From Escherichia coli (lineage in GTDB: Bacteria; Pseudomonadota; Gammaproteobacteria; Enterobacterales; Enterobacteriaceae), in NCBI RefSeq assembly GCF_003334815.1, contig NZ_QOWO01000006.1: a DNA stretch of 64,000 nucleotides; one strand, 5' to 3'. Within the stretch, counting starts at the first letter, position 1; each line of letters begins with the position of its first letter. Both the position numbers and the translations under genes were made by a program. Positions 5,350 through 59,947 of this stretch are shown here, in pieces. The notes under the pieces are model-generated. The model worked only from the letters and a program-made list of their open reading frames with translations, was not told the origin of the DNA and made no database searches.

Positions 5350-6673
5350 ACCTGCGCATTTATTATTGGTCGATGACGATCCGGGATTGCTGAAACTGCT
5401 TGGCCTGCGCCTGACCAGCGAAGGCTACAGTGTGGTCACGGCGGAAAGTGGCGCTGAAGGATTACGGGTACTGAATCGCGAAAAAGTAGATTTAGTCATC
5501 AGCGACCTGCGGATGGATGAAATGGACGGTATGCAGCTGTTTGCTGAAATCCAGAAAGTGCAGCCGGGAATGCCGGTAATTATTCTTACCGCGCATGGTT
5601 CTATTCCCGATGCCGTTGCTGCAACACAGCAGGGCGTTTTTAGTTTCCTCACCAAGCCTGTCGACAAAGACGCGCTATATCAGGCAATTGACGATGCGCT
5701 GGAGCAATCCGCGCCAGCCACCGATGAACGCTGGCGCGAGGCAATTGTCACCCGCAGCCCGCTGATGCTGCGTTTGCTGGAACAGGCGCGGCTGGTGGCG
5801 CAATCAGACGTCAGCGTTTTGATTAACGGTCAGAGCGGCACCGGGAAAGAGATTTTCGCCCAGGCTATCCACAACGCCAGCCCGCGCAACAGCAAACCAT
5901 TTATTGCTATTAACTGTGGCGCATTGCCCGAGCAATTGCTGGAGTCGGAGCTGTTTGGTCATGCGCGTGGCGCGTTTACTGGCGCTGTCAGCAATCGCGA
6001 AGGTTTATTCCAGGCGGCGGAAGGCGGAACGCTATTTCTCGATGAAATTGGCGATATGCCTGCGCCGTTACAGGTCAAACTGCTGCGCGTGTTGCAGGAG
6101 CGTAAAGTGCGCCCGCTGGGCAGTAACCGCGATATTGATATCAATGTGCGGATTATTTCTGCCACTCACCGTGATCTGCCAAAAGCGATGGCGCGCGGGG
6201 AATTCCGCGAAGATCTCTATTACCGCCTCAACGTTGTCAGCCTGAAAATTCCGGCACTGGCGGAGCGCACAGAAGACATTCCGCTACTGGCAAATCACCT
6301 GTTGCGCCAGGCGGCAGAGCGACATAAACCGTTTGTCCGCGCGTTCTCTACCGATGCGATGAAACGCCTGATGACCGCGAGCTGGCCGGGTAATGTGCGC
6401 CAGTTGGTCAACGTGATTGAACAGTGCGTGGCGCTGACCTCATCTCCGGTGATTAGTGATGCGCTGGTGGAGCAGGCGCTGGAGGGTGAAAATACGGCGC
6501 TGCCAACCTTTGTTGAGGCACGTAATCAGTTTGAACTCAACTATTTGCGTAAGCTGCTGCAAATCACCAAAGGCAACGTCACCCACGCGGCGAGAATGGC
6601 GGGGCGCAACCGGACAGAATTTTATAAACTGCTTTCCCGACACGAGCTGGATGCAAACGATTTCAAGGAATGA
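5339..6673 (+). CDS. glrR: sigma-54-dependent response regulator GlrR (YfhA/QseF), 444 aa
   Basis: Track ORF 5237..6673; start [15 protein letters not shown] overlaps qseG stop by 11 nt; receiver domain, AAA+ sigma-54 activator domain (GESGTGKE, GAFTGA motifs), C-terminal HTH. Confidence 0.93.
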
Positions 6674-7116: not shown

Positions 7117-8307
7117 TTACAGCACCTTATGCGGGCCAAAGCATTCGTAATGAATGTTTTCCTGCTTCACGCCCAGATCCACTAACTGTTTCGCGGTAAA
7201 CTGCATGAAGCCAACCGGGCCGCAGAGATAGAACTGCATTGTCGGATCGCTGAACGCACCTTCCAGTTTGCTCAAATCCATCAGACCTTCGCTATCAAAC
7301 TGACCTTTAGCGCGATCGGCTTCGCTCGGCTGACGATACCAGGTGTGCGCGGTAAAGCGCGGCAGTGACTGCCCCAGTTCCTTAACTTCATCGGCAAAGG
7401 CGTGAACATCGCCATTTTCTGCCGCATGGAACCAGTTCACTTGTGCTGTGTGGCCTGCTTTTGCCAGCGTGTCGAGCATTGCCAGCATTGGCGTTTGACC
7501 AACACCGGCAGAGATTAACGTCACTGGTGTGTCATCTGCGACAGCCATAAAGAAATCACCTGCCGGAGCGACCAGTTTCACGACATCGCCAACATTGGCG
7601 TGATTGTGCAACCAGTTGGATACCTGCCCACCCTCTTCGCGTTTCACCGCAATACGATAGCCTTTGCCATCCGGTTTGCGAGTCAAAGAGTACTGACGAA
7701 TTTCCTGATGTGGGAAACCTTCCGGCTTCAGCCAGACGCCGAGATATTGCCCCGGACGGTATTCTGCCACTGCGCCACCGTCGACCGGCTCCAGTTCGAA
7801 GCTGGTGATAAGCGCGCTGCGCGGTGTTTTAGCCACAATGCGGAAATCGCGAGTACCTTCCCAACCACCGGCTTTGCTGGCGTTTTCGTTATAGATTTCC
7901 GCCTCGCGATTGATAAATACATTAGCCAGTACACCATAGGCTTTACCCCACGCGTCCAGCACTTCCTGCCCCGGGCTGAACATTTCGTCCAGCGTTGCCA
8001 ACAGGTGTTCACCGACGATGTTGTACTGTTCCGGTTTGATCTGGAAGCTGGTGTGCTTCTGCGCGATTTTTTCTACCGCTGGCAGCAGCGCAGGCAGGTT
8101 TTCAATATTACTGGCGTAGGCGGCAATAGCGTTAAACAGGGCTTCACGTTGATCGCCATTACGCTGGTTACTCATGTTAAAAATTTCTTTGAGTTCTGGG
8201 TTATGAGTAAACATACGGTCGTAGAAATGGGCGGTTAACTTTGGCCCCGTTTCCACCAGTAAAGGGATGGTGGCTTTTACTGTAGCGATGGTTTGAGCGT
8301 CAAGCAT
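7117..8307 (-). CDS. hmp: flavohemoglobin / nitric oxide dioxygenase, 396 aa
   Basis: Track ORF 7117..8328; start at [17 protein letters not shown] (globin domain) followed by FAD/NAD-binding reductase domain. Confidence 0.95.
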
Positions 8308-8333
8308 ATGGTCTTCCTTTTTTTGCATCTTAA

Positions 8334-8356
8334 TTGATGTATCTCAAATGCATCTT
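8334..8356. promoter_or_regulatory. NsrR-type operator palindrome overlapping the hmp promoter
   Basis: AAGATGCATTTGAGATACATCAA (minus-strand reading) is an imperfect inverted repeat 27-49 bp upstream of the hmp start; matches the NsrR site pattern AAGATGYATTT...AAATRCATCTT. Confidence 0.7.
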
Positions 8357-8501
8357 ATAAAAAATAGCCCTGCAATGTAAATGGTTCTTTGGTGTTTTTC
8401 AGAAAGAATGTGATGAAGTGAAAAATTTGCATCACAAACCTGAAAAGAAATCCGTTTCCGGTTGCAAGCTCTTTATTCTCCAAAGCCTTGCGTAGCCTGA
8501 A

Positions 8502-8517
8502 GGTAATCGTTTGCGTA
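8502..8517. promoter_or_regulatory. PurR-box-like sequence in glyA upstream region
   Basis: Complement reads ACGCAAACGATTAC, resembling the PurR operator ACGCAAACGTTTTC; about 120 bp upstream of glyA start. Confidence 0.4.
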
Positions 8518-8634
8518 AATTCCTTTGTCAAGACCTGTTATCGCACAATGATTCGGTTATACTGTTCGCCGTTGTCCAACAGGACCGCCTATAAAGGCCA
8601 AAAATTTTATTGTTAGCTGAGTCAGGAGATGCGG

Positions 8635-9888
8635 ATGTTAAAGCGTGAAATGAACATTGCCGATTATGATGCCGAACTGTGGCAGGCTATGGAGCAGGAA
8701 AAAGTACGTCAGGAAGAGCACATCGAACTGATCGCCTCCGAAAACTACACCAGCCCGCGCGTAATGCAGGCGCAGGGTTCTCAGCTGACCAACAAATATG
8801 CTGAAGGTTATCCGGGCAAACGCTACTACGGCGGTTGCGAGTATGTTGATATCGTTGAACAACTGGCGATCGATCGTGCGAAAGAACTGTTCGGCGCTGA
8901 CTACGCTAACGTCCAGCCGCACTCCGGCTCCCAGGCTAACTTTGCGGTCTACACCGCGCTGCTGGAACCAGGTGATACCGTTCTGGGTATGAACCTGGCG
9001 CATGGCGGTCACCTGACTCACGGTTCTCCGGTTAACTTCTCCGGTAAACTGTACAACATCGTTCCTTACGGTATCGATGCTACCGGTCATATCGACTACG
9101 CCGATCTGGAAAAACAAGCCAAAGAACACAAGCCGAAAATGATTATCGGTGGTTTCTCTGCATATTCCGGCGTGGTGGACTGGGCGAAAATGCGTGAAAT
9201 CGCTGACAGCATCGGTGCTTACCTGTTCGTTGATATGGCGCACGTTGCGGGCCTGGTTGCTGCTGGCGTCTACCCGAACCCGGTTCCTCATGCTCACGTT
9301 GTTACTACCACCACTCACAAAACCCTGGCGGGTCCGCGCGGCGGCCTGATCCTGGCGAAAGGTGGTAGCGAAGAGCTGTACAAAAAACTGAACTCTGCCG
9401 TTTTCCCTGGTGGTCAGGGCGGTCCGTTGATGCACGTAATCGCCGGTAAAGCGGTTGCTCTGAAAGAAGCGATGGAGCCTGAGTTCAAAACTTACCAGCA
9501 GCAGGTCGCTAAAAACGCTAAAGCGATGGTAGAAGTGTTCCTCGAGCGCGGCTACAAAGTGGTTTCCGGCGGCACTGATAACCACCTGTTCCTGGTTGAT
9601 CTGGTTGATAAAAACCTGACCGGTAAAGAAGCAGACGCCGCTCTGGGCCGTGCTAACATCACCGTCAACAAAAACAGCGTACCGAACGATCCGAAGAGCC
9701 CGTTTGTGACCTCCGGTATTCGTGTAGGTACTCCGGCGATTACCCGTCGCGGCTTTAAAGAAGCCGAAGCGAAAGAACTGGCTGGCTGGATGTGTGACGT
9801 GCTGGACAGCATCAATGATGAAGCCGTTATCGAGCGCATCAAAGGTAAAGTTCTCGACATCTGCGCACGTTACCCGGTTTACGCATAA
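8635..9888 (+). CDS. glyA: serine hydroxymethyltransferase, 417 aa
   Basis: Track ORF 8629..9888; start [12 protein letters not shown]...; PLP-lysine motif [14 protein letters not shown]. Confidence 0.97.
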
Positions 9889-49054: not shown

Positions 49055-49202
49055 TCTGTTTTGTCCCTGATTGTTGCTAAAACTCATTTTATTTTAAAAA
49101 AATGTTACCTTCATCAATAGTCAACGGCCCTGTTGCTCATTATAATCCGCGCCATCTCGTACGCTGGTACAGACAACAACAGAACAATTTACAGAGGTAA
49201 AA

Positions 49203-59865: not shown

Positions 59866-59947
59866 TTATTCAGTCGATAGTAACCCGCCCTTCGGGGATA
59901 GCAAGCATTTTTTGCAAAAAGGGGTAGATGCAATCGGTTACGCTCTG

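Follow-up and report, generated by a model that had tools for sequence, protein, structure and literature searches.

The spacer between hmp and glyA in this stretch of DNA is almost certainly the well-studied control region of these two divergent genes, with an NsrR operator on the hmp side and a PurR operator on the glyA side. Both boxes are equal to published sites with experimental backing, as the earlier note had proposed from the letters alone, and nothing contradicts either assignment. The central points of this reading are all in the literature and curated, both operators to the level of RegulonDB. The hmp-glyA spacer is a textbook case of dense control by several regulators and has little weight as a discovery; it serves as a positive control in which the letters alone were enough to find two true operators with an error of no more than one base.

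The window, by which we mean the whole stretch of 64,000 nucleotides that was analysed, belongs to the Escherichia coli chromosome, and a 901-bp query taken around the finding has matches in every one of the 5426 complete E. coli genomes, with at least 99% identity in 5389 of them. The divergent arrangement of hmp and glyA around a spacer of 327 bp was borne out by the open reading frame coordinates and by the RefSeq annotation (hmpA, glyA). The spacer occupies positions 8308-8634, between the hmp start codon (8305-8307, minus strand, the true start MLDAQT... being at 8307) and the glyA ATG at 8635. The analysis itself supplies the matrix ranks, the identity with published sites, the conservation and the positions with respect to the predicted promoters, and in vivo occupancy and the direction of regulation come from the literature; footprint boundaries, transcription starts and the coordinates of the FNR and MetR sites were drawn from secondary sources, general background or inference. 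The features are as follows.

7117-8307, minus strand: hmp (hmpA) coding sequence, NO-inducible flavohaemoglobin (flavohaemoprotein), from the open reading frame list and the RefSeq annotation of the identical E. coli locus.
8321-8331, minus strand: weak extra NsrR half-site AAGATGCAAAA, adjoining the hmp ribosome-binding site.
8334-8356, minus strand: NsrR operator, an 11-1-11 inverted repeat AAGATGCATTT-G-AGATACATCAA, from published identity and as top matrix match.
8334-8347, no strand assigned: FNR-type box TTGAT-GTAT-CTCAA, nested in the promoter-distal half of the NsrR operator, from a pattern search.
8352-8381, minus strand: predicted hmp sigma-70 promoter, with -35 TTTACA (8376-8381), an 18-nt spacer and -10 TAAGAT (8352-8357), from a consensus scan.
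8419-8431, plus strand: candidate MetR-type box 1, TGAAAAATTTGCA, hmp-proximal, with one mismatch to the consensus TGAA-N2-T/A-N2-TTCA.
8441-8453, plus strand: candidate MetR-type box 2, TGAAAAGAAATCC, from column conservation, consensus, spacing and a statement in the literature.
8482-8491, no strand assigned: conserved block AAAGCCTTGC, between the MetR-type boxes and the PurR operator.
8501-8516, plus strand: PurR operator AGGTAATCGTTTGCGT, from published identity and as top matrix match.
8558-8563, plus strand: probable glyA -10 hexamer TATACT (TAYACT invariant in all 14 genera compared and conserved in 109 spacers).
8574-8598, plus strand: two tandem stem-loops in the glyA leader, GTCC-AACA-GGAC (8574-8585) and GCCT-ATAA-AGGC (8587-8598), from folding.
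8612-8634, plus strand: near-invariant 23 nt GTTAGCTGAGTCAGGAGATGCGG directly upstream of the glyA ATG (109 spacers, 14 genera).
8635-9888, plus strand: glyA coding sequence, serine hydroxymethyltransferase, from the open reading frame list and the RefSeq annotation.

In the case of the hmp side, the plus strand at 8334-8356 reads TTGATGTATCTCAAATGCATCTT, the reverse complement of which is the 23-mer AAGATGCATTTGAGATACATCAA that the earlier note had put forward as the operator of an NO-sensing repressor, and this 23-mer is letter for letter the published NsrR operator of hmp. In Mehta et al. 2015 (PMC5320621), Table 4 gives the same 23-mer as the hmp site, positive in ChIP-seq and with a PatSer ln(P) of -18.22 (the cut-off being -14.28), and Table 2 contains a glyA<>hmp ChIP peak with two half-sites, AAGATGCATTT and AAGATGCAAAA, of which the second is weak, lies closer to the start codon and is entered as 'hmp (19) AAGATGCAAAA' with a PatSer value of 5.0. 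The core of the site had already been predicted as GATGCATTTgAgATaCATC upstream of E. coli hmp by Rodionov et al. 2005, whose enterobacterial alignment shows it to be conserved and also marks candidate FNR and NarP sites (PMC1274295). Enterobacterial NsrR operators are 23-bp 11-1-11 repeats of AAGATGYATTT half-sites, and this is the organization found at 8334-8356, where the promoter-proximal half (8346-8356) is a perfect AAGATGCATTT (11/11) and the promoter-distal half (8334-8344) matches the half-site at 8 of 11 positions. The operator shows no difference from that of E. coli K-12/CFT073 (Rodionov 2005; Bodenmiller & Spiro 2006; Partridge 2009; Mehta 2015), with which it shares the same 23 bp, the same distance to the start codon and the same 11-1-11 architecture. 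The ytfE operator, in contrast, has two perfect half-sites, whereas the distal half of the hmp site is degenerate. The hmp operator of Salmonella Typhimurium, AAGATGCATTTGATATACATCAT, has the same position and architecture but differs from that of E. coli at two places in the distal half, which is slightly better as an NsrR half-site (9/11 vs 8/11 in E. coli), while its FNR half-site is similarly good.

To score the site we built a leave-one-out matrix, for which the hmp entry of Table 4 in Mehta et al. 2015 (PMC5320621) was set aside and the remaining 25 distinct 11-1-11 sites were used. The matrix scans covered both strands of the 64-kb window, and chance expectations were taken from first-order Markov randomisations that follow the base-to-base transition frequencies of the window. 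The site at 8334-8356 scored above threshold, with 18.1 bits (training range 12.3-32.4 bits), which is the best score on both strands of the 64 kb, and 0.03 equal or better matches are expected per random 64 kb. The description of the 23-mer as an imperfect palindrome had to be qualified, because the 11-1-11 architecture stands but as a bare palindrome the sequence is at chance level and the signal is the match to the motif. Indeed, 7 of the 11 arm positions are complementary, 11-1-11 repeats with such pairing occur six times in the spacer (3.3 expected), and a generic repeat search of the region reported no inverted repeat. We therefore dropped the palindrome argument in favour of motif scoring. 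The second-best NsrR match in the window, AACATTTTTTTAAAATAAAATGA at 49084-49106 (15.9 bits), is situated between pbpC and ndk, a short way upstream of the latter; it is a low-complexity A/T sequence and probably spurious, and ndk is absent from the published NsrR ChIP table in the parts covered (PMC5320621).

The predicted hmp promoter (TTTACA-18-TAAGAT, 8381 down to 8352) would place the transcription start near 8345, so that the NsrR operator, read from 8356 down to 8334, spans roughly -11 to +12. The 23-mer overlaps the predicted -10 hexamer TAAGAT, as had been claimed for the operator and the hmp promoter, and this span fits promoter occlusion. The -35 TTTACA is invariant in 14 diverse genera and near-invariant in the 109 spacers described below. 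NsrR is a repressor of the Rrf2 family with an [Fe-S] cluster whose reaction with NO abolishes DNA binding (PMC6950321), and the regulation of hmp and the list of its regulators have been reviewed (PMC6950321, PMC2884951). NsrR bound to its 23-bp operator would cover the -10 hexamer and the probable transcription start, and would thus block RNA polymerase; damage to its cluster by NO would release it from the DNA and allow hmp to be transcribed. The weak extra half-site at 8321-8331 shares with the main operator a 9-nt direct repeat, TGCATCTTA, whose copies lie 25 nt apart at 8324-8332 (within the weak half-site) and 8349-8357. This half-site has low column conservation among the spacers and is not kept outside Escherichia, so any function that it may have would be lineage-specific.

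In the case of the glyA side, the PurR-like box is real and is the published glyA operator, although the coordinates that had been given for it, 8502-8517 (GGTAATCGTTTGCGTA), were one base too far to the right, the correct ones being 8501-8516. Cho et al. 2011 list AGGTAATCGTTTGCGT as the glyA motif within a ChIP-chip peak that was stronger with adenine (2.08 vs 1.13; PMC3159470). Furthermore, the RegulonDB evidence paper counts the glyA site among the PurR sites with 'confirmed' cross-validated evidence, a grade that requires agreement between two or more of the following: footprinting, site mutation and validated ChIP-chip (PMC3548332). No difference was found from the glyA PurR operator described for E. 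coli (Steiert 1990, 1992; Cho 2011), which is the same 16-mer at the same distance from the ATG. By manual count the site matches the consensus ACGCAAACGTTTGCGT at 13 of 16 positions, with the central CG expected of a PurR operator present and a perfect right half, GTTTGCGT, that is nearly invariant among the spacers. When glyA was excluded from the sites that Cho et al. 2011 give in Table 1 (PMC3159470), the leave-one-out matrix made from the remaining 27 gave 21.5 bits at 8501-8516 (training range 12.0-25.5), above threshold and the first rank on both strands of the 64 kb, with 0.01 equal or better matches expected per random 64 kb.

PurR, with hypoxanthine or guanine as corepressor, would dampen glyA transcription when purines are plentiful. 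Repression of glyA by PurR is only about two-fold. Counted from the glyA ATG the operator is 119-134 nt upstream, and counted from the transcription start that we infer from TAYACT it is about 60 bp upstream. This places it upstream of the probable core promoter, an unusual position for simple occlusion. From there, at roughly -60, PurR probably represses glyA by disturbing upstream contacts or the activation that depends on MetR, and not by simple occlusion. Among PurR-regulated promoter regions, 14 of 32 (44%) have the motif between -35 and -10 (Cho et al. 2011; PMC3159470).

Two further PurR-like boxes were found in the window. The third-best distinct PurR site, TTGAAATCGTTTGCAT at 6651-6666 on the minus strand (12.35 bits), is located within the 3' end of glrR, at a distance of 68-83 nt upstream of glnB, which is a documented PurR target that was missed by the ChIP-chip study (PMC3548332, PMC3159470). 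At 59928-59943, also on the minus strand, the window carries the published guaB-guaA PurR site unchanged (GCGTAACCGATTGCAT; PMC3159470), so that it holds three PurR-regulated promoters, those of glnB, glyA and guaBA.

The conservation of these elements was followed in orthologous spacers. A collection with one genome per species was searched with a degenerate DNA pattern derived from the Hmp globin domain, which gave 120 loci, and the 108 of them with divergent hmp-glyA, together with one E. coli locus identical to the window, make up a set of 109 spacers of 291-392 bp, all distinct in sequence. They come from Enterobacteriaceae genera plus Hafnia and Samsonia, mostly from species other than E. 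coli, and their identity to the window ranges from 48% to 100% (median 73%). In the alignment, the top-scoring NsrR site shares one column in 108 of the 109 spacers and is displaced by one column in the remaining spacer, and its score exceeds the lowest training score in all of them (109/109); for PurR, the top-scoring site keeps both its column and its strand in 109/109. The operators are therefore kept strictly across the Enterobacteriaceae and their relatives while the surrounding spacer diverges. Besides the operators, the conserved blocks are the hmp -35 TTTACA, the two TGAA-N5 boxes, 8482-8491, TTGTCAAGACCTGTTATC, TAYACT and the last 23 nt before the ATG.

It had also been stated that two unrelated inputs share this compact region. 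NsrR and PurR are both present, each beside its own promoter and about 150 bp apart, but the statement is incomplete because there are an FNR-type box and two MetR-type boxes too. Two MetR sites have been stated for the hmp-glyA region, and the reported effects of MetR with homocysteine are activation of glyA and repression of hmp (PMC5002191), which makes MetR the element that both promoters truly share. Consensus and conservation point to 8419-8431 and 8441-8453 as the likely places of these sites. Box 2 lies 22 bp downstream of box 1 and is more degenerate (about 6 of the 9 specified consensus positions, by manual count) but equally conserved, and the TGAA and GCA positions of box 1 are kept in 96-109 of the 109 spacers. 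Situated between the two promoters, these boxes would allow MetR to act on both glyA and hmp. A similar arrangement is found in the metE-metR divergon, where two tandem boxes of the TGAA-N5-TTCA type, like the putative ones described here, lie in the divergent spacer and act on both promoters; unlike that system, metR is not a flanking gene at hmp-glyA, and each promoter has an additional dedicated repressor of its own. At least four regulators, NsrR, FNR, MetR and PurR, thus converge on the spacer, and only MetR is reported for both genes.

Several other explanations of the boxes were considered. AT-rich DNA can yield spurious NsrR-like matches, probably including the one upstream of ndk, and as the palindrome by itself is not significant, one or both boxes might have arisen by chance in an AT-rich spacer and regulate nothing. 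The low expectations per 64 kb given above for both matrices, the conserved position in 109/109 spacers amid diverging flanks, and the independent in vivo binding data (PMC3159470, PMC5320621) leave this explanation with hardly any probability, and it is effectively refuted already. We give equally little credence to the idea that the inverted repeat is an RNA hairpin of the hmp leader and not a protein operator. The repeat is indeed imperfect and near the start of the transcript, but with the -10 hexamer at 8352-8357 only about half of it (roughly 8345 down to 8334) would be transcribed, the pairing is limited to the 7 of 11 positions mentioned above, and it has no Rfam family match: a scan of 8100-8850 found no riboswitch or known sRNA, and only a chance match to the miRNA family mir-67 (E = 0.54).

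It is also very unlikely, if slightly less so, that the 23-mer is only an FNR site and its resemblance to an NsrR operator incidental. The sequence 8334-8347, close to the promoter, matches TTGAT-N4-ATCAA at 9 of 10 positions, and FNR is a reported negative regulator of hmp (PMC2884951). However, the best-conserved half of the operator, AAATGCATCTT at 8346-8356, lies outside the FNR box and is kept, among the 108 spacers scored, at 11/11 in 68 and at no fewer than 10/11 in 103. By lineage, the match to the FNR consensus is 9-10/10 in Escherichia; values of 8-9/10 belong chiefly to Salmonella and Citrobacter, with a few species from other genera, and most of the remaining genera have 7/10 or less. 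The site is also positive for NsrR in ChIP-seq (PMC5320621). As the FNR and NsrR readings are compatible with each other, the evidence favours overlapping operators.

With overlapping operators as the preferred reading, the FNR-type box deserves some comment. Six matches to the FNR pattern with at most one mismatch occur in the 64 kb (2.1 expected), 8334-8347 being one of them, and we take this one to be the exact hmp FNR site (Poole 1996; Cruz-Ramos 2002). FNR bound to the distal half of the NsrR operator could provide a second, anaerobic and NO-sensitive repression of hmp. The 18.1 bits of the E. coli NsrR operator are below the 5th percentile of its orthologues (19.4; median 27.4), making it a comparatively weak NsrR operator, while its FNR-box match of 9/10 ranks among the best, and by eye two of its departures from the common operator form, T at 8334 and C at 8345 (the central spacer), are bases of the FNR consensus. 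Across the spacers, the quality of the FNR box and that of the NsrR distal half are correlated with a Spearman rho of -0.34, uncorrected for phylogeny and thus only a hint. The combination of a weak NsrR operator and a good FNR box suggests a trade-off between overlapping operators in E. coli, in which the NsrR operator may have become weaker than in nearly all orthologues through changes at the very positions that make a good FNR box. If true, this would ease the derepression of hmp in Escherichia. That the spacer holds control beyond the four described regulators, consisting of this operator trade-off plus an undescribed input possibly acting on glyA, is a tentative proposal that we consider rather doubtful as a whole.

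Regarding the glyA promoter, the invariance of TAYACT points to TATACT at 8558-8563 as the -10 hexamer, with a transcription start expected near 8569-8571. The conserved TTGTCA at 8525-8530, upstream of TATACT, is separated from it by 27 nt, too many for a -35. The consensus scan paired this TTGTCA with AATGAT, but we rejected this pairing as the glyA promoter because only close relatives keep AATGAT, in contrast to the invariant TAYACT. The block at 8482-8491, in which A..CCTT is invariant in 14 genera, contains TTGCGT and was considered as a second PurR site; it was discarded as it is outside the 12 best PurR matrix matches in the window and, by eye, does not have the central CG.

Downstream of the probable transcription start, the two small, GC-rich stem-loops of the glyA leader have a minimum free energy of -9.4 kcal/mol (z = -2.5). 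They were judged by folding each sequence separately and by a census of the stems, which found hairpin 1 in 72 of the 86 unique leaders from orthologous loci, compared with 12% of shuffles, and with the compensatory stem variants GTCC/GGAC, GCCC/GGGC and CCCA/TGGG. RNAalifold on glyA leaders aligned with MAFFT did not recover the hairpins, which we attribute to variable loop lengths that put the stems out of register. The stem-loops may stabilise the 5' end of the mRNA, and, to our knowledge, they have no published description. The 23 nt GTTAGCTGAGTCAGGAGATGCGG that follow include the Shine-Dalgarno sequence AGGAG (8624-8628) and are more conserved than this sequence alone needs; an in-frame ATG at 8629 directly 3' of AGGAG is unlikely to be a start codon because it abuts it. 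The conserved and covarying leader stem-loops, together with the 23-nt block and 8482-8491, suggest an undescribed input, possibly a post-transcriptional control of glyA.
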